Positions 12,727 to 57,919 of a stretch of DNA of 64,000 bases are shown one piece after another. Every line of letters starts with the position of its first letter. The stretch's first letter is position 1. Where the stretch lies: sequence record PV245934.1; one strand, written 5' to 3'. The notes under the pieces are model-generated. The model was not told the DNA's origin, made no database searches, and saw nothing but the letters and a program-made list of their open reading frames with translations. The position numbers and the translations under genes are program-made. This stretch comes from Escherichia phage sutha.

Positions 12727-13457
12727 AATAATATCCAATTTTTCCAAGCTTCATCAGTAGAATTACAGCGTTTTAGTATAAGATGTCTAGAAACTTTTAT
12801 GGCATTTGAGCACTTTTTAATTGAATCATATTTAATACCGTCAACTGAAACGGTTTTGCTAGTTGGAGAAATTTTTCCATACATTGGATTTTTTGAACCA
12901 ACTTGAAGTCCTTTTAAAGCTTTTGAAAGCTTTTGTCTAGATTCCAATGACATGGGAGAATTCTTTTTACCTTCAATAATTCGCTTGCGATGAAGTTCGC
13001 GTTCTTCTTCACTCAAAGAATTGTAATATTTTTTAACACCGTTTGATATAGATAATTTATCTTTCTCAGACCGCTCTCCAGCTAATTTACTTCTAACATC
13101 TTTTCGCTTCATAGCTATGCTTACGGCTTTATTTAAATTTGCTTGATGCTCTGGCGTACGTTTATATTTCTTTAAAGCACGTGAAATAGCTATTTTAGTT
13201 TCTTCTGTTCTCTTTTTACCTTTATTTGCTAAACTATTTTTGCGGCGATGTTCAAGTGTCTGTTCATAGGCAGTTCCACCTTTTCCACCAGGTTTAATAT
13301 TATATGTATTTTCTTTTAGACAATACTCTTCGGTTACAAGTTCAGCTTCTTTATCATACATTTGTTTTTCATTATCAAAAACATGTAAAATTTCTTTATT
13401 AAAATTTTTTCTACCATGTTTTAATAAAGCGGCACGAATCAATGTTCCTGACCCCAT
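12723..13457 (-). CDS. GIY-YIG homing-endonuclease-like protein, distal portion (linker repeats plus C-terminal DNA-binding domain)
   Basis: 244 aa; GSGTLIRAALLKHGRKNF...EIL resembles second half of I-TevI catalytic domain; Lys/Gly-rich repeat linker; C-terminus VDGIKYDSIKKCSNAIKVSRHLILKRC...WKNW resembles I-TevI HTH tail. Confidence 0.65.
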   Translation of the reverse strand: MGSGTLIRAALLKHGRKNFNKEILHVFDNEKQMYDKEAELVTEEYCLKENTYNIKPGGKGGTAYEQTLEHRRKNSLANKGKKRTEETKIAISRALKKYKRTPEHQANLNKAVSIAMKRKDVRSKLAGERSEKDKLSISNGVKKYYNSLSEEERELHRKRIIEGKKNSPMSLESRQKLSKALKGLQVGSKNPMYGKISPTSKTVSVDGIKYDSIKKCSNAIKVSRHLILKRCNSTDEAWKNWILL

Positions 13458-35769: not shown

Positions 35770-36300
<531 letters not shown>

Positions 36301-47425: not shown

Positions 47426-47433
47426 TATAAATA
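47426..47433 (+). promoter_or_regulatory. late promoter TATAAATA for gene 53
   Basis: Exact TATAAATA 29 nt upstream of gp53 ATG; GGAGGG SD follows. Confidence 0.7.
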
Positions 47434-47440
47434 GATAATA

Positions 47441-47448
47441 TATTTATA
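47441..47448 (-). promoter_or_regulatory. late promoter TATAAATA for gene 4 (divergent)
   Basis: Exact TATAAATA on minus strand 27 nt upstream of gp4 ATG. Confidence 0.65.
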
Positions 47449-47461
47449 AACAGGAGGGCCC

Positions 47462-48052
47462 ATGCTCTTTACATTTTTTGATCCGATTGAATATGCGGCC
47501 AAAACAGTGAATAAAAACGCGCCGACTATTCCTATGACAGATATTTTTAGAAACTATAAAGACTATTTTAAACGCGCTCTTGCGGGATACCGCTTACGTA
47601 CTTATTATATCAAAGGTTCACCACGCCCGGAAGAATTAGCAAATGCTATATATGGAAATCCGCAGTTGTATTGGGTTTTATTGATGTGTAATGATAATTA
47701 TGATCCGTATTATGGATGGATTACTTCGCAAGAAGCTGCTTATCAAGCATCTATACAAAAATACAAAAACGTAGGTGGAGACCAAATAGTATATCATGTG
47801 AATGAGAACGGTGAAAAATTCTATAATTTAATATCATACGATGATAATCCATATGTTTGGTATGACAAAGGCGATAAAGCTAGAAAATATCCTCAATATG
47901 AAGGAGCACTTGCTGCGGTCGATACGTATGAAGCTGCTGTTCTTGAAAATGAAAAACTTCGTCAAATAAAAATAATAGCAAAATCAGACATCAATTCATT
48001 TATGAACGACCTTATACGTATAATGGAGAAATCTTATGGAAATGATAAGTAA
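47462..48052 (+). CDS. 53: baseplate wedge protein gp53
   Basis: 196 aa; matches T4 gp53 length and synteny. Confidence 0.9.
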   Translation: MLFTFFDPIEYAAKTVNKNAPTIPMTDIFRNYKDYFKRALAGYRLRTYYIKGSPRPEELANAIYGNPQLYWVLLMCNDNYDPYYGWITSQEAAYQASIQKYKNVGGDQIVYHVNENGEKFYNLISYDDNPYVWYDKGDKARKYPQYEGALAAVDTYEAAVLENEKLRQIKIIAKSDINSFMNDLIRIMEKSYGNDK

Positions 48053-49808
48053 TAACCTCAATTGGTTTGTTGGTGTTGTTGAAGATAGAATGGACCCATT
48101 AAAATTAGGTCGTGTTCGTGTTCGTGTAGTTGGTCTGCATCCACCTCAAAGAGCGCAAGGCGACGTAATGGGTATTCCAACCGATAAATTACCATGGATG
48201 TCAGTTATTCAACCTATAACTTCTGCAGCAATGTCTGGAATTGGAGGCTCCGTTACTGGTCCGGTAGAAGGAACTAGAGTTTATGGTCATTTTTTAGACA
48301 AATGGAAAACTAACGGAATTGTCCTTGGCACATATGGCGGAATAGTTCGCGAAAAGCCTAATAGGCTTGAAGGATTTTCTGACCCAACTGGACAGTATCC
48401 TAGACGTCTAGGAAATGATACTAACGTATTAAACCAAGGCGGAGAAGTAGGATATGATTCGTCTTCTAATATTATCCAAGATAGCAATCTAGACACTGCG
48501 ATAAATCCCGATGATAGACCACTATCAGAAATTCCAACTGATGATAATCCAAATATGTCAATGGCTGAAATGCTTCGCCGTGATGAAGGATTAAGACTAA
48601 AAGTTTATTGGGATACTGAAGGATATCCGACAATTGGTATTGGTCATCTTATCATGAAGCAGCCAGTTCGTGATATGACTCAAATTAATAAAGTTTTATC
48701 AAAACAAGTTGGTCGTGAAATTACCGGAAATCCAGGTTCTATTACAATGGAAGAGGCGACAGCTTTATTTGAACGCGATTTGGCTGATATGCAACGTGAC
48801 ATTAAATCACATTCTAAAGTTGGCCCAGTTTGGCAGGCAGTTAATCGTTCTCGTCAAATGGCATTAGAAAACATGGCATTTCAGATGGGTGTTGGTGGTG
48901 TAGCTAAATTTAACACATTGTTAACTGCTATGTTAGCAGGAGATTGGGAAAAAGCATATAAAGCTGGTCGTGATTCATTGTGGTATCAACAAACAAAAGG
49001 ACGTGCATCCCGTGTTACTATGATTATTCTTACGGGAAATTTGGAATCATATGGTGTTGAAGTGAAAACCCCAGCTAGGTCTCTATCAGCAATGGCGGCT
49101 ACTGTAGCTAAATCTTCTGACCCTGCTGACCCTCCTATTCCAAATGACTCGAGAATTTTATTCAAAGAACCAGTTTCTTCATATAAAGGCGAATATCCTT
49201 ATGTGCATACAATGGAAACTGAAAGCGGACATATTCAGGAATTTGATGATACCCCTGGGCAAGAACGATACAGATTAGTTCATCCGACAGGAACTTATGA
49301 AGAAGTATCACCATCAGGAAGAAGAACAAGAAAAACTGTCGATAATTTGTATGATATAACAAATGCTGATGGTAATTTTTTGGTAGCCGGCGATAAAAAG
49401 ACTAACGTCGGTGGATCAGAAATTTATTACAACATGGATAATCGTCTCCACCAAATAGATGGAAGCAATACAATATTTGTGCGTGGCGATGAAACGAAAA
49501 CTGTTGAAGGTAATGGAACTATCCTAGTTAAAGGTAATGTTAAAGTAGTTATTCAAGGAACAGCAGATATAACTGTTGAACAGGAAGCATACATAACTGT
49601 TGAAAAAGACACGACTGTTAATGTTAACCAAAACGCAGACATAAGTGTTAAAAATAAAGCAACTGTTAATGCTGAAAATATGGATGTCAACGTTGAGCAA
49701 GATTTAAATTTTTCAGCGACAAATATTAATTTAAGTGCATCTAATACTGTTCATATGGATGGCGGGGTTCTTTCTAAAGTATCAGGTGGAAACGTACAGG
49801 TTGGTTAA
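48036..49808 (+). CDS. 5: baseplate central spike / tail lysozyme gp5
   Basis: 590 aa; N-terminal OB domain, central lysozyme domain homologous to gpe (DEGLRLKVYWDTEGYPTIGIGHL), C-terminal beta-helix repeats. Confidence 0.95.
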   Translation: MEMISNNLNWFVGVVEDRMDPLKLGRVRVRVVGLHPPQRAQGDVMGIPTDKLPWMSVIQPITSAAMSGIGGSVTGPVEGTRVYGHFLDKWKTNGIVLGTYGGIVREKPNRLEGFSDPTGQYPRRLGNDTNVLNQGGEVGYDSSSNIIQDSNLDTAINPDDRPLSEIPTDDNPNMSMAEMLRRDEGLRLKVYWDTEGYPTIGIGHLIMKQPVRDMTQINKVLSKQVGREITGNPGSITMEEATALFERDLADMQRDIKSHSKVGPVWQAVNRSRQMALENMAFQMGVGGVAKFNTLLTAMLAGDWEKAYKAGRDSLWYQQTKGRASRVTMIILTGNLESYGVEVKTPARSLSAMAATVAKSSDPADPPIPNDSRILFKEPVSSYKGEYPYVHTMETESGHIQEFDDTPGQERYRLVHPTGTYEEVSPSGRRTRKTVDNLYDITNADGNFLVAGDKKTNVGGSEIYYNMDNRLHQIDGSNTIFVRGDETKTVEGNGTILVKGNVKVVIQGTADITVEQEAYITVEKDTTVNVNQNADISVKNKATVNAENMDVNVEQDLNFSATNINLSASNTVHMDGGVLSKVSGGNVQVG

Positions 49809-49809
49809 T

Positions 49810-51846
49810 ATGAATTATAACGAAATTGTTGATGAATTAGTTGATACCATACAATCAGCTTGTTCAATTATTCCCGAAGGTTATTATAGACGAGTTAAAT
49901 GGGAATTATACAATCCCAATAAAGAAATGATTCAACCCGATAATGGGGTTGAATGGGACACTGAAATTATTAAATTAGATACCCATCTTTACACCGAAAA
50001 TCCATTTGGTCATTCTTCTGATACATTTACTGAATCATCTGATGGAGAAACCCAAACTGGTGTTTTTTGTCATAAAATCGGCGTGTATTTTCCAACTCAA
50101 ACTGCGTTAGAAGATTACGTTGAACAAATTGGTGCAACTTTACTTCCAGGTAATACTTGGTATGGTGCTGATTTATCGAAACGTGAATTTTTTAAAACTG
50201 AAATTGAATATGATATGTATCGCATTGAAAATCGCGGAGGTACATGGCATCATACGGGTCCTAGAATAGATGCTAGGACAATGATCGGTGTTAACAATGA
50301 CTATACAATGTATGTTAACTTTAACGGTTTAGGAGATTATCGAAGAGCATATTTAAAATATTATGAAGATAAACCATGCACATATGTCGGTTTAACACTA
50401 AATTTAAATATAGATACATCAATTCCCGGTATTCCTTATTCACCTCCATCAATTATTGGAGAGCTTCCACTTAATGCAATTTCATGCGTTAATTTTACTG
50501 CCCAATTTCCATACAATGGCTTAACAACTGCAATTATTGAGGCTTGGAACACCTCAAGAGATTCATTTAAACTATATTGGGATATGTTGCCTGGTATGCC
50601 GGCAATTAGCGGAAGTGATTTTGAAAAATATTTTAATTCGGCATATACACATTTATCTGTAGCAATGGAAGAGCTTGGAAATTCGGCAATTGCCATGTGT
50701 CAATATGTTCAGCAACAAGCCTTTATGGTTTTTAAAAATTCTGTTTCACAAGTTCTAAATATTGTCGGTGGCGGATGGGATTTATTAAAAAGTTTTTTAC
50801 CTAAAATAACAATAATGGGCATATCTATTGATATTGAAGATTTATGTACATCAACAGATGGTGTTCAAAAATTGAAGGAAACCTTTGAAAATTTTAATCT
50901 GGAAGATACTATTAGTTCAATTTATTCTGCAATGGGTTCTGCATATGACTATTCTATAGAACGCGTTAAAATGTATTCGCGGGATTTAGTTGATGCAATA
51001 ACAGATTTATATGATTGGGCCTGGTCAAAATTAATGATGGCCGGTGTCGCTTTATCAAAATTATGTGTTGATTTAGCACAAATCTGGAGCATGCCACCAA
51101 TTATTCCAAATCCAGTGTGGTCTGTTATCACTTTAGTGAAGGAAATGATGAAACAAATTCCTCCATTAGATATGATTATGTCAGGTAATTTTCCTGGATT
51201 TACTGCTTCTGATGTATATCAGATGGTTATGTCTATCGTATCTGAAAAAATTAAACAAGTTTATAATGAAATAGAATCATTAAAAACCCAAGCATTGGAT
51301 GTATGGAATGAAATTAAACTAAAAACACAGGAATATAAAAAGCAAACGATTGAATTTAAACAATATTTATCAGGAATGGCTGAAAAGGTTGAAGATGAAA
51401 TAACTATAGCAAAAAAGAAAGCGTTACAAGAAGCTGAATCCGCTTTAAATGTTTTAAAGGATAAATATAACAGTATTAAAGACTTGATAAAAAATAAACA
51501 GATTTCTGTGTCTGATGTATTAGATTTAGCTTTGACTGAATTTCGAAAAATTCCATTAATTTCACAAATGGAATCATTATTATCTTTAGCTGGAGCATCT
51601 ATCGATGATATAATGAAAGTATATGAAAATAGCGTTACTAAAGCAAAATCATTATATCACGAATTCACCGATGGCGCTCGGTCAATGAAAGATCTATGCA
51701 AATCATTATACAATCAAATTTCGACTTTATGTTTGAGTAAGGTTGTGCAATGGATTAATAAAATGCTTGGAATATTTGGATTAAGTATTACATTTCCAAC
51801 AGTATCAATATGCATTCCATGCTTAAAAACTCCTATGAGGAATTAA
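49810..51846 (+). CDS. large hypothetical protein (678 aa) between spike gp5 and gp6
   Basis: Start placed at ATG 49810 (MNYNEIVDEL), 1 nt after gp5 stop; helical/coiled-coil C-terminal half and hydrophobic, Cys-containing tail (LGIFGLSITFPTVSICIPCLK); no motif I recognise. Confidence 0.6.
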   Translation: MNYNEIVDELVDTIQSACSIIPEGYYRRVKWELYNPNKEMIQPDNGVEWDTEIIKLDTHLYTENPFGHSSDTFTESSDGETQTGVFCHKIGVYFPTQTALEDYVEQIGATLLPGNTWYGADLSKREFFKTEIEYDMYRIENRGGTWHHTGPRIDARTMIGVNNDYTMYVNFNGLGDYRRAYLKYYEDKPCTYVGLTLNLNIDTSIPGIPYSPPSIIGELPLNAISCVNFTAQFPYNGLTTAIIEAWNTSRDSFKLYWDMLPGMPAISGSDFEKYFNSAYTHLSVAMEELGNSAIAMCQYVQQQAFMVFKNSVSQVLNIVGGGWDLLKSFLPKITIMGISIDIEDLCTSTDGVQKLKETFENFNLEDTISSIYSAMGSAYDYSIERVKMYSRDLVDAITDLYDWAWSKLMMAGVALSKLCVDLAQIWSMPPIIPNPVWSVITLVKEMMKQIPPLDMIMSGNFPGFTASDVYQMVMSIVSEKIKQVYNEIESLKTQALDVWNEIKLKTQEYKKQTIEFKQYLSGMAEKVEDEITIAKKKALQEAESALNVLKDKYNSIKDLIKNKQISVSDVLDLALTEFRKIPLISQMESLLSLAGASIDDIMKVYENSVTKAKSLYHEFTDGARSMKDLCKSLYNQISTLCLSKVVQWINKMLGIFGLSITFPTVSICIPCLKTPMRN

Positions 51847-51847
51847 A

Positions 51848-53827
51848 ATGACAACTCCTGTAAATTATCAATTAACAAGAACAGCAAATGCTATTCCCGA
51901 GATATTCGTCGGGGGTACATTTGCTGAAATAAAACAAAACCTCATTGAATGGCTTAATGGTCAAAATGAATTTTTGGATTATGATTTTGAAGGCTCAAGA
52001 TTAAACGTTCTGTGCGACCTTTTGGCTTATAATACATTATACATTCAGCAGTTTGGTAATGCTGCCGTATATGAAAGCTTTATGCGTACTGCTAACTTAC
52101 GTAGTTCAGTAGTTCAAGCGGCACAAGATAATGGATATTTACCTACTTCAAAATCAGCTGCTCAAACTGAAATTATGCTAACTTGTACAGATGCATTGAA
52201 TAGAAATTACATTACTATTCCTCGCGGTACTCGCTTTTTAGCATATGCAAAAGATACTTCTGTTAATCCATATAACTTCGTTTCTACTGAAGACGTTATT
52301 GCTATTCGTGATAAAAATAACCAATATTTTCCGCGTTTAAAATTAGCCCAGGGGCGTATAGTAAGAACTGAAATCATTTATGATAAATTAACACCTATTA
52401 TCATTTATGACAAAAATATAGATAGAAACCAAGTTAAACTATATGTTGATGGAGCAGAATGGATTAACTGGACAAGAAAGTCAATGGTTCATGCTGGTTC
52501 TACATCAACAATTTACTACATGCGTGAAACTATTGATGGAAATACTGAGTTTTATTTTGGTGAAGGCGAGATTTCTGTTAATGCGGCAGAAGGAGCATTG
52601 ACTGCTAATTATATTGGAGGTCTTAAACCTACCCAGAACTCTACGATTGTTATTGAGTACATCAGTACTAACGGTGCAGATGCGAATGGTGCAGTCGGAT
52701 TTTCATACGCAGATACATTAACAAATATAACTGTCATCAACATTAATGAAAATCCAAACGATGACCCAGATTTTGTTGGGGCAGATGGCGGCGGCGATCC
52801 AGAAGATATTGAGCGTATTCGCGAATTGGGTACTATTAAACGCGAAACCCAGCAACGCTGCGTAACTGCGACTGACTATGATACATTCGTTTCAGAGAGA
52901 TTTGGTTCTATTATTCAAGCAGTTCAGACTTTCACTGATTCTACTAAACCTGGTTATGCATTTATTGCTGCTAAACCTAAATCAGGGTTGTATTTAACTA
53001 CTGTACAACGCGAAGATATTAAAAATTATCTCAAAGACTATAATTTAGCTCCTATTACGCCATCAATTATTTCTCCTAATTATCTTTTTATTAAGACTAA
53101 TTTAAAAGTCACATATGCTTTAAATAAGCTACAAGAATCCGAACAGTGGCTCGAAGGTCAAATAATTGATAAAATTGATCGTTATTATACCGAAGACGTA
53201 GAAATTTTTAACTCATCTTTCGCTAAATCTAAGATGTTGACATATGTAGATGATGCAGATCATTCTATCATTGGTTCATCAGCGACAATTCAAATTGTTC
53301 GTGAAGTACAAAACTTCTATAAAACGCCTGAAGCAGGTATTAAATACAATAATCAAATAAAAGATCGTTCTATGGAATCTAATACGTTTTCATTTAATTC
53401 TGGACGAAAGGTTGTAAATCCTGATACTGGTTTAGAAGAAGATGTATTATATGACGTTCGCATAGTATCAACAGACCGAGATTCTAAAGGAATTGGTAAA
53501 GTTATTATTGGTCCATTTGCTTCTGGCGATGTTACAGAAAATGAAAACATTCAGCCGTATACAGGCAACGATTTTAACAAATTAGCAAATTCTGATGGAC
53601 GCGACAAATACTATGTTATCGGTGAAATAAATTATCCAGCTGATGTGATTTATTGGAATATCGCTAAAATTAATTTAACATCTGAAAAATTTGAAGTTCA
53701 GACTATTGAATTATATTCTGACCCAACCGATGATGTTATCTTTACTCGCGATGGTTCACTGATTGTATTTGAAAATGACTTACGTCCACAATACTTAACT
53801 ATCGATTTGGAGCCTATATCACAATGA
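51848..53827 (+). CDS. 6: baseplate wedge protein gp6
   Basis: 659 aa, MTTPVNYQLTRTANAIPEIFVGGTFAEIKQNLIEWLNGQNEF... matches T4 gp6. Confidence 0.95.
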   Translation: MTTPVNYQLTRTANAIPEIFVGGTFAEIKQNLIEWLNGQNEFLDYDFEGSRLNVLCDLLAYNTLYIQQFGNAAVYESFMRTANLRSSVVQAAQDNGYLPTSKSAAQTEIMLTCTDALNRNYITIPRGTRFLAYAKDTSVNPYNFVSTEDVIAIRDKNNQYFPRLKLAQGRIVRTEIIYDKLTPIIIYDKNIDRNQVKLYVDGAEWINWTRKSMVHAGSTSTIYYMRETIDGNTEFYFGEGEISVNAAEGALTANYIGGLKPTQNSTIVIEYISTNGADANGAVGFSYADTLTNITVININENPNDDPDFVGADGGGDPEDIERIRELGTIKRETQQRCVTATDYDTFVSERFGSIIQAVQTFTDSTKPGYAFIAAKPKSGLYLTTVQREDIKNYLKDYNLAPITPSIISPNYLFIKTNLKVTYALNKLQESEQWLEGQIIDKIDRYYTEDVEIFNSSFAKSKMLTYVDDADHSIIGSSATIQIVREVQNFYKTPEAGIKYNNQIKDRSMESNTFSFNSGRKVVNPDTGLEEDVLYDVRIVSTDRDSKGIGKVIIGPFASGDVTENENIQPYTGNDFNKLANSDGRDKYYVIGEINYPADVIYWNIAKINLTSEKFEVQTIELYSDPTDDVIFTRDGSLIVFENDLRPQYLTIDLEPISQ

Positions 53828-56922: not shown

Positions 56923-57919
56923 TTCAAGTGTTATCTATCGTGCGATAGTTACTTCAAAATTTAGAACAGAAAAAATGTTGAATTTTTATAATTCAATTGG
57001 AAGTGGTCCGGATAAAAACACTATCTTTATCACATTTGGAAGATCAGAACCATGGTCATCAAATGAAAATGAGGTGGGATTTGCCCCACCTTATCCCACC
57101 GATTCTGTATTAGGTGTAACTGACATGTGGACTCATATGATGGGAACTGTAAAGGTTCTTCCATCTATGCTCGATGCAGTTATTCCTCGTAGAGATTGGG
57201 GAGATACTAGATATCCGGATCCATACACATTTAGAATTAACGATATTGTAGTATGTAACTCAGCTCCTTACAATGCTACCGAATCAGGCGCAGGCTGGTT
57301 AGTATATCGCTGTTTAGATGTTCCTGACACAGGAATGTGTTCAATTGAGTCTTTAACTAATAAGGATGAATGCCTTAAGTTAGGTGGAAAATGGACTCCT
57401 TCTGCTAGGTCAATGACTCCTCCTGAAGGTCGAGGAGACGCGGAAGGAACAATCGAACCTGGAGACGGGTATGTATGGGAATATCTTTTTGAGATTCCGC
57501 CTGATGTATCTATAAATAGATGTACGAATGAATATATCGTGGTTCCTTGGCCGGAAGAATTAAAAGAAGACCCGACTAGATGGGGGTATGAAGATAACCT
57601 CACTTGGCAACAAGATGATTTTGGATTAATTTACCGTGTTAAGGCAAATACTATCCGTTTTAAAGCATATTTAGATTCAGTTTATTTTCCTGAAGCTGCA
57701 CTGCCGGGAAATAAAGGATTTAGGCAAATATCAATAATCACGAATCCTCTTGAAGCTAAAGCTCATCCAAATGACCCAAACGTTAAAGCTGAAAAGGATT
57801 ATTATGATCCGGAAGATTTAATGAGGCATTCGGGCGAAATGATTTATATGGAAAATAGGCCACCTATTATCATGGCAATGGATCAAACAGAAGAAATCAA
57901 TATTCTGTTTACATTTTAA
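56915..57919 (+). CDS. 8: baseplate wedge protein gp8
   Basis: 334 aa; size and synteny match T4 gp8. Confidence 0.95.
   Translation: MNDSSVIYRAIVTSKFRTEKMLNFYNSIGSGPDKNTIFITFGRSEPWSSNENEVGFAPPYPTDSVLGVTDMWTHMMGTVKVLPSMLDAVIPRRDWGDTRYPDPYTFRINDIVVCNSAPYNATESGAGWLVYRCLDVPDTGMCSIESLTNKDECLKLGGKWTPSARSMTPPEGRGDAEGTIEPGDGYVWEYLFEIPPDVSINRCTNEYIVVPWPEELKEDPTRWGYEDNLTWQQDDFGLIYRVKANTIRFKAYLDSVYFPEAALPGNKGFRQISIITNPLEAKAHPNDPNVKAEKDYYDPEDLMRHSGEMIYMENRPPIIMAMDQTEEINILFTF

Follow-up and report, generated by a model that had tools for sequence, protein, structure and literature searches.

The 64-kb window analysed here (64,000 nucleotides of Escherichia phage sutha, sequence record PV245934.1) comes from a T4-genus phage and carries, between the baseplate genes 5 and 6, an open reading frame (ORF) for a protein of 678 residues (76.9 kDa, pI 4.9). 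In phage T4, the same interval holds the genes 5.1, segC, 5.3 and 5.4, the last of which encodes a PAAR protein. The ORF and the end of gene 5 form a cassette that replaces this T4 arrangement, and the ORF product is probably a large spike tip unrelated to PAAR proteins. The gp5 stop codon (TAA, 49806–49808) is separated by one base from the start codon of the ORF (ATG, 49810), and the stop codon of the ORF (TAA, 51844–51846) is followed, again after one base, by the gp6 start codon (ATG, 51848). A first-pass annotation of this DNA had given these boundaries and their tight spacing correctly, as well as the lengths of gp5 (590 residues here and 575 in T4). Mechanically, the longest ORF opens at a GTG codon at position 49735 and would encode 703 residues. 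The ATG is taken as the start because the N-terminal Met-Asn-Tyr sequence is conserved, with M1 and Y3 present in at least 90% of 61 family sequences. The neighbours gp53, gp5 (Gp5_OB, Phage_lysozyme and Gp5_C repeats) and gp6 are all recognised by Pfam. With a GC content of 0.32 versus 0.35 for the window, and similar values at third codon positions, the ORF presents no compositional anomaly.

Both edges of the cassette can be placed by comparison with T4. Upstream, the DNA is approximately 96% identical to that of T4 as far as position ~49542, and gp5 residues 1–502 are identical to T4 gp5 at 497 of 502 positions (99.0%; five differences). This left junction is visible in the DNA alignment and falls inside the region encoding the gp5 β-helix. 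The stretch between this point and the ribosome-binding site of gp6 has no relationship to T4 sequence, and the remaining 88 residues of gp5 are likewise unrelated to the 73-residue tail of the T4 protein. The right edge coincides with the ribosome-binding site and start codon of gp6, beyond which the DNA is again approximately 97% identical to T4. Because of these two junctions, the T4 block consisting of the 73-residue gp5 tail, 5.1, segC, 5.3 and 5.4 must have been replaced by one that consists of the 88-residue gp5 tail and the 678-residue ORF. The alignments show the ORF and the final 88 residues of gp5 to have been brought into a T4-genus genome together, in a single recombined block.

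Phage Bp7 carries a comparable arrangement, and the gp5 tail is the segment best conserved relative to it: 79 of the 88 residues are identical (90%), compared to identities of 63% in the remainder of gp5, 73% in the tip protein and 70% in gp6. The divergence profile against Bp7 has no sharp internal break, and an internal mosaic is not proposed because this divergence tracks conservation within the family. In T4, gp5.4 is bound by the last β-strand of gp5 (Buth et al. 2015), and a junction at this location therefore keeps the tip protein and the surface on which it presumably docks in one unit.

Several other features lie close to the left junction. Antisense ORFs co-linear with T4 repEB and repEA persist inside gene 5 (48058–48195 and 49162–49362, both on the minus strand). 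The first-pass annotation had listed small 5.x ORFs between T4 genes 5 and 6, which is correct, and had possibly placed repEA and repEB there as well, which is not, as these are short antisense ORFs inside T4 gene 5. The position homologous to T4 oriE (~49432) lies only ~110 bp upstream of the left junction. The homing endonuclease gene segC sits in the segment of T4 that has been replaced, and no such gene is found at this place in the window. That recombination initiated at an origin or by an endonuclease promoted the cassette swap is speculation.

The end of gp5 is linked to the type of tip gene well beyond this phage. We compared nine gp5 proteins whose gene is linked to a member of the ORF family (from the window, Bp7, KM16, Pm5461, S13, RB43, KP15 and two metagenomic contigs) with five whose gene is linked to a PAAR gene. 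The ending [ST]G[GA][NT]V[QSV]VG is present in all nine of the former and in none of the latter, and the C-terminal motif of gp5 is thus perfectly covariant with tip-gene type in these 14 phages. The gp5 protein of the window ends with SGGNVQVG. Among the PAAR-linked proteins, those of T4, a Klebsiella phage, Yersinia phage phiR1-RT and an Aeromonas phage end with GSRI[DN][ILV]G, and that of an Acinetobacter phage differs again. The metagenomic tip proteins included in this comparison are among the most divergent of the family (P0065, 29% identical; P0066, a profile match with E = 1.9e-135). The linkage is to gp5 and not to gp6, because two cases keep only the gp5 neighbour. Specifically, the tip gene of Cronobacter phage S13 follows gp5 but does not have gp6 as its downstream neighbour, and one metagenomic contig has a gp25-like gene between the tip gene and gp6.

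Two of these loci have additional features. The gp5-tip pair of S13 is preceded by a gene annotated as ‘tail protein’ and followed by small minus-strand ORFs, such that the cluster is rearranged and the pair is intact. In a JGI metagenome contig, P0066 (743 residues) comes after a short gp5 of 389 residues that ends with FTGGTVVVG, for which a Gp5_OB match and no lysozyme-domain match is recorded. From its sequence, this gp5 may be a lysozyme-less spike that carries the same tip adaptor.

As a rule, the gene for a fibre or spike chaperone lies immediately downstream of that for its client, and the chaperone varies in step with the client's C-terminus. The downstream position of the ORF and its covariation with the gp5 C-terminus match this pattern. 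The ORF product could accordingly be a chaperone dedicated to folding or assembling the variant gp5 end (a tail of the GGNVQVG type), which trimerises or caps this end during assembly of the hub and is not kept in the mature virion. However, β-helix fragments of T4 gp5 fold and trimerise alone when expressed in E. coli (Buth et al. 2015), and a mass of 77 kDa with a rigid, confidently predicted architecture would be unusual for a chaperone of this sort. Moreover, a spike that lacked the ORF product would be left without any tip protein. We consider such a chaperone to be quite unlikely, and additional evidence from RB43 particles that bears on it is described below.

The T4 tip gene has no detectable counterpart in this phage. 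Searches by tblastn with T4 gp5.4 and gp5.1 yielded nothing in the 64-kb window (best E values of 2.4 and 0.71, respectively), and likewise nothing in a further ~100 kb from Escherichia phage PD112 (1–98.9 kb; best E value of 0.89). The last ~5 kb of PD112 is filled by annotated genes for DNA polymerase, gp13–15 and the small terminase. By comparison, the gp5.4 query does recover relatives from 1422 other phage records, at identities as low as approximately 26%. By this sequence-based measure the PAAR gene has been lost, as none that is detectable remains, which bears out the first-pass observation that no small PAAR-like ORF is located between genes 5 and 6. The possibility that the ORF itself encodes a PAAR protein (PF05488) was rejected, given that it has no Pfam match, no tblastn similarity to gp5.4 and no conical β-structure fold. 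The ORF was also rejected as a form of T4 gp5.1, gp5.3, RepEA or RepEB, as it has no homology to any of these proteins. A T4 non-structural homolog, which the first-pass annotation had named as the finding that would speak against a spike-associated role, was therefore not encountered.

Other observations concern the relatives of these T4 genes. T4 gp5.3 (56 residues) has a tblastn match at an unrelated locus of the window (12789–12905, minus strand; E = 3e-8, 41% identity over 39 residues). This match probably represents a small DNA-binding module that also occurs in genes of the homing-endonuclease type. A second gene with a lysozyme domain (35782–36264, minus strand) encodes a product that is 44% identical to the lysozyme domain of gp5 over 166 residues, and its counterpart in PD112 carries the annotation soluble lysozyme (gene e). 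In PAAR-type T4-like phages of Klebsiella, Yersinia and Acinetobacter, the locus has a minimal gp5-5.1-5.4-gp6 layout that lacks segC and 5.3. Because this layout recurs in three PAAR-type phages, 5.1 and 5.4 appear to travel together, in line with a published proposal of 5.1 as a component of the tip complex.

The ORF is part of a late transcription unit comprising 53-5-ORF-6-7. A late promoter motif of the T4 type is located upstream of gene 53 and likely drives this unit, and the next such motif on the plus strand occurs only at position 57511. Over the whole window these motifs are no more numerous than expected by chance, and therefore the promoter call rests on position, the motif lying between genes 4 and 53 as it does in T4. 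Terminator-like matches between 47300 and 54000 are no commoner than in shuffled sequences, and the spaces between the operon genes contain none. The position of the promoter, the lack of a later plus-strand motif before 57511 and the lack of terminators between genes place the ORF in this unit, co-transcribed with gp5 in the late baseplate operon. Presumably, the ORF is also translationally coupled with gp5. Two opposed copies of the TATAAATA motif, the one on the plus strand and a second at 47441–47448 on the minus strand, are present in the 47-bp gap between gene 4 (minus strand) and gene 53 (plus strand). Proteus phage Pm5461 has a comparable annotated pair of promoters upstream of gene 53. 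The features of the locus are collected in Table 1.

Table 1. Features of the gene 5 to gene 6 region in the 64-kb window, with the residue numbering of the encoded proteins.
Feature	Position	Strand	Basis
Likely late promoter motif, T4-type, TATAAATA	47426–47433	+	Upstream of gene 53, gene 4/53 intergenic region
gp5 residues 1–502 (OB domain, lysozyme domain, first part of β-helix), T4-type	48036–49541	+	Identity, Pfam
gp5 residues 503–590 and stop codon; swapped β-helix end and putative tip platform, ending ...LSKVSGGNVQVG	49542–49808	+	Alignment
Putative large spike-tip protein, RB43 orf205w / PHROG 5296 family	49810–51846	+	ORF, homology, AlphaFold2 model
N-terminal α/β region, residues 1–283	49810–50658	+	Residues 1–200 predicted as a compact domain without known fold relative
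Helical C-terminal part, residues 284–678	50659–51843	+	AlphaFold2; match to Helios core
Predicted long helical hairpin, residues 466–566 (helices 466–520 and 529–566)	51205–51507	+	AlphaFold2
Conserved hydrophobic C-terminal tail, residues 653–673, ...LGIFGLSITFPTVSICIPC...	51766–51828	+	Family motif S-x-C-x-P
gp6 baseplate wedge subunit, T4-type	51848–53827	+	Pfam gp6 domains, DNA identity

The encoded protein belongs to a family that is widespread among T4-like phages and has remained without an assigned function. It is 100% identical to a PD112 protein (YP_010073093, annotated as "hypothetical protein"), and its residues 1–673 match profile positions 1–684 of 685 in phrog_5296 (‘unknown function’) with E = 0. 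No significant family was found for it in Pfam or NCBIfam, consistent with the first-pass remark that it has no recognisable motif, and a sequence-profile search of the PDB returned only coiled-coil noise (best E value of 0.011). When 50,697 phage records were searched by tblastn, 215 were matched, 213 of them at full length. Identity is highest (99.3–99.7%) in nine records from phages of E. coli and Salmonella (SG1, PD112, G8, JEP6, F26, BYEP01), and the three of these examined for taxonomy (SG1, PD112) are all classified under Tequatrovirus. It declines to 72% in Bp7, WG01 and SP18, 60% in KM16, approximately 55% in Proteus and Providencia phages, ~46% in Cronobacter phage S13, ~42% in RB43, Lw1 and Miller and ~41% in Klebsiella phages of the KP15 type. 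RB43 ORF205w matches 99% of the query at 42% identity, and the alignment thus identifies the window protein as a full-length ortholog of RB43 orf205w. The relationship is apparent in its full-length homology, its place after gene 5, the lack of a 5.4 ortholog, the diverged end of gp5 and the protein architecture. Within T4-genus phages the tip gene is present in nine records, compared to approximately 700 with a gp5.4 that is at least 90% identical to that of T4.

An alignment of 61 family members, which range from 664 to 764 residues, has 41 invariant columns. Both this conserved length and the position directly after gp5 are maintained in at least six lineages, comprising five named genera and the unclassified Cronobacter phage S13. 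A profile search of 1.84 billion protein representatives recovered eight full-length representatives and five shorter partial matches. The next matches were tape measures, aligned only over generic amphipathic helices, and by this search the family is confined to T4-like phages. Labels given to homologs in sequence records include ‘tail length tape measure protein’, ‘baseplate hub structural protein’ and ‘SbcC-like subunit of palindrome specific endonuclease’, which conflict with one another and lack experimental support.

A family lacking an annotated function, at a site where T4 holds a mobile homing endonuclease gene (segC) and small ORFans, might also represent non-structural cargo, such as a moron or a host-takeover or defence-related gene that happens to occupy a hyperplastic site in the gene 5–6 interval. 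However, such cargo would not be expected to sit in the late operon with 1-nt spacing on both sides, to keep its length and its position after gp5 in at least six lineages, to co-vary strictly with the end of gp5 or to be limited to T4-like phages among 1.84 billion representatives. We therefore regard this explanation as very improbable.

Structurally, the protein is predicted to form an N-terminal α/β region and a long helical part. The AlphaFold2 monomer model, built with the 61-sequence alignment, is confident (predicted local distance difference test score, pLDDT, of 87.8; predicted template-modelling score, pTM, of 0.80). It includes helices at residues 285–319, 389–426, 466–520, 529–566 and 622–655 and a strand at residues 664–673, in agreement with the helical C-terminal half expected from the first-pass annotation. 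The best conserved stretches of the family are residues 101–140, 381–470 and 621–660. A Foldseek search of the PDB with this model gave a best E value of 0.13 and template-modelling scores below 0.2, and no relatives among solved structures, PAAR proteins included, were found for either the whole model or its N-terminal domain. Three of the helices (285–319, 389–426 and 622–655) correspond to the three-helix core of gp203 from Helios, a family protein described in Klebsiella grimontii phages (Viruses 2026, PMC13611949). In an AlphaFold3 model of gp203 with a trimer of gp202 (the gp5 protein), this single-chain triple-helix core is formed by Phe287–Ile327, Glu398–Trp440 and Lys631–Ile670, and the protein makes hydrophobic contact with the last strand of gp5 and carries a distal loop (PMC13611949). 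The function of gp203 has not been experimentally established, as stated by its authors (PMC13611949).

Variability within the family is greatest in the long hairpin, with entropy values of 2.3–2.6 at residues 481–560 and the lowest identity to Bp7 (0.57–0.70). In the model its two helices would each be roughly 80 Å long or less if straight, and the hairpin probably forms a distal projection and loop. The C-terminal tail, by contrast, is conserved. Its Kyte-Doolittle hydropathy over 19 residues is 1.76 at positions 653–671, compared to a family median of 1.87, and is at least 1.6 in 45 of the 61 sequences. Its strand (pLDDT ~93) is predicted to be buried, and Cys668 is present in 58 of the 61 sequences. 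The hydrophobic, cysteine-containing tail noted in the first-pass annotation is therefore a feature of the entire family.

Three other cysteines are also conserved, with Cys18 and Cys190 invariant and Cys226 present in 58 of the 61 family members. The codons are located at 49861–49863 (Cys18), 50377–50379 (Cys190), 50485–50487 (Cys226) and 51811–51813 (Cys668). Other spike tips bind Zn or Fe. On the basis of their conservation, these four residues could form a metal site or disulfides.

The long amphipathic helices are the source of another assignment, in which the protein acts as a tail tape measure. Some homologs in GenBank are labelled ‘tail length tape measure protein’, and weak matches to tape-measure families are obtained in PHROG searches (E ~1e-5). 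However, weak matches of this kind (E = 1e-8 to 1e-4) are located in apolipoprotein-like helices outside the PF10145 and PF20155 domains that define genuine tape measures, and the 678-residue protein has no Pfam tape-measure domain. In addition, gp29, annotated ‘baseplate hub subunit and tail length’, is encoded separately in the same genome and at its canonical place. Because only generic amphipathic helices are matched and gp29 is present, the tape-measure label is rejected as an artefact of helical composition, and the chance that it is correct is close to nil.

Collectively, these findings point to a large, non-PAAR spike tip that caps the gp5 β-helix and replaces gp5.4 and possibly gp5.1, a reading to which we assign a probability of approximately 0.7. 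The idea that this family forms spike tips is already published and is not new to this study. Phages RB43, RB16 and Lw1 lack gene 5.4, and in RB43 the 5.1–5.4 locus is filled by orf205w, a protein of ~690 residues whose residues 1–220 are mixed α/β and whose remainder is helical (Mattenberger et al., bioRxiv 2025/2026, PMC12407873). A 17.7 Å cryo-electron microscopy map of the RB43 baseplate reveals a larger protein at the tip of the spike, and an AlphaFold model of orf205w fits this density (PMC12407873). This visibly larger tip density, in particles of a phage whose genome carries no PAAR gene, also argues against a chaperone that is absent from the mature virion. The first-pass annotation had suggested that the ORF encodes a spike-associated or ejected factor in place of a PAAR ORF, and this proposal is supported by the orthology to orf205w, the co-transfer with the end of gp5 and the covariation of the gp5 motif.

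Several points weigh against the assignment of the ORF product as a spike tip. The RB43 authors describe the tip only as ‘possibly encoded by’ orf205w, and their attempt to co-express this protein with a gp5 β-helix fragment failed (PMC12407873). The physical evidence for a tip position in the virion is confined to the 17.7 Å RB43 map with its fitted model. Co-transfer and covariation with the end of gp5 would be equally expected for a chaperone. Finally, T4 gp5.4 was the only PAAR query used for tblastn, and this query could miss a PAAR gene of highly diverged sequence at another place in the genome. The virion proteome of Morganella phage MP1 lists nothing between gp141 and gp147, a gap that apparently includes gp5 itself, and literature searches for virion proteomes of KP15/KP27 and of VR7/SP18/JS98/RB43 yielded nothing usable.

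If the ORF product is a spike tip, the 77-kDa protein would cap the blunt C-terminal end of the trimeric gp5 β-helix, with one copy probably binding the three-fold gp5 platform. The conserved end of its three-helix core would contact gp5, as in the Helios AlphaFold3 model, and the N-terminal α/β domain and variable hairpin would make up the body and distal point, respectively. Upon sheath contraction, the tip assembly would be driven into the outer membrane ahead of all other virion parts, and would then be released with the gp5 β-helix into the periplasm, by analogy with the spikes of T4 and P2. The location on the spike, the stoichiometry, the docking of the core and the distal position of the hairpin are details that we infer from the models of others and from low-resolution data. 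Any further action of the amphipathic helices and hydrophobic tail at membranes, or with periplasmic or inner-membrane factors, is speculation.

A bolder form of this idea is that the spike delivers a membrane-active effector with a new fold. The protein would be ejected with the spike and refold in the manner of α-helical pore-forming toxins or type III translocators, such that its helices and tail insert into a host membrane and help to build a conduit for DNA, an activity beyond the sharpening of the spike. The tail and helices might engage the inner membrane or periplasmic factors to nucleate this conduit, in which case tips would be exchangeable cassettes matched to the host envelope and the last strands of gp5 would serve as a universal adaptor. 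We consider this scenario unlikely, both for the ejected protein itself and in its extended form.

A spike tip of the orf205w type is of a known kind that is experimentally unproven, and our findings will not surprise specialists who are aware of the 2025 preprint. What is new is the discrete tip module in T4-genus phages, the junction within the gp5 β-helix, the GG[NT]VQVG adaptor motif and a confident monomer model without fold relatives. The cassette gives independent genetic support to the hypothesis that orf205w forms a spike tip, and narrows the determinant of tip choice to the final ~88 gp5 residues. It also corrects the labels ‘hypothetical protein’, ‘tape measure’ and ‘SbcC-like’ that are attached to the family. 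There is still debate about how contractile-tail phages cross the cell envelope once the spike has struck the outer membrane, and the function of a spike-tip protein has only recently been probed, with T4 gp5.4, which is dispensable for assembly and is needed for fitness and for the infection of deep-rough lipopolysaccharide mutants. A second, unrelated and eight-fold larger type of tip would be present in hundreds of phages that are therapeutic candidates against Klebsiella, Enterobacter, Cronobacter, Citrobacter and Proteus. Phages of the PD112/SG1 type are natural chimeras, with essentially a T4 virion and an alternative tip module, and they thus make possible a nearly isogenic comparison of the two tip types with T4 genetics.

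Among known systems, the closest counterpart is RB43 orf205w (AAX78727), which resembles the window protein in its position directly after gp5, its N-terminal α/β region followed by helices, and the lack of 5.4 in the genome. The RB43 gp5 ends with TGGTVQVG, akin to the end of gp5 in the window. However, RB43 is a Pseudotevenvirus, whereas the window comes from a T4-genus phage (Tequatrovirus) in which the surroundings of the cassette are 96–99% identical to T4. The orf205w model is also described as low-confidence by its authors, whereas the AlphaFold2 model of the window protein is confident. Helios gp203 belongs to the same family and locus and has matching core helices, but is from a more distant lineage of Straboviridae, and both proteins are known from models only.

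Other systems share the proposed role or the architecture of this protein. Tape-measure proteins (PF10145, PF20155) likewise have long amphipathic helices, although their defining domains are absent here. Phage P1 carries a tripod of UpfB on the PAAR protein UpfC, which is a helical extension with a distal loop on a myophage spike, and this parallel was drawn by the Helios authors. The likeness is one of architecture: P1 retains its PAAR protein, on which three copies of another, helical protein are mounted, whereas a single chain and no PAAR protein are proposed for the window phage. T4 gp5.4 (a PAAR-repeat protein, PDB 4KU0) occupies the same genomic slot and has the same proposed job, in that a single protein caps the last β-strands of the gp5 trimer. 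However, gp5.4 has 97 residues compared to 678 here, the two proteins share no similarity in sequence or fold, and the gp5 proteins that would carry them end with GSRIDIG in T4 and with GGNVQVG in the window phage.

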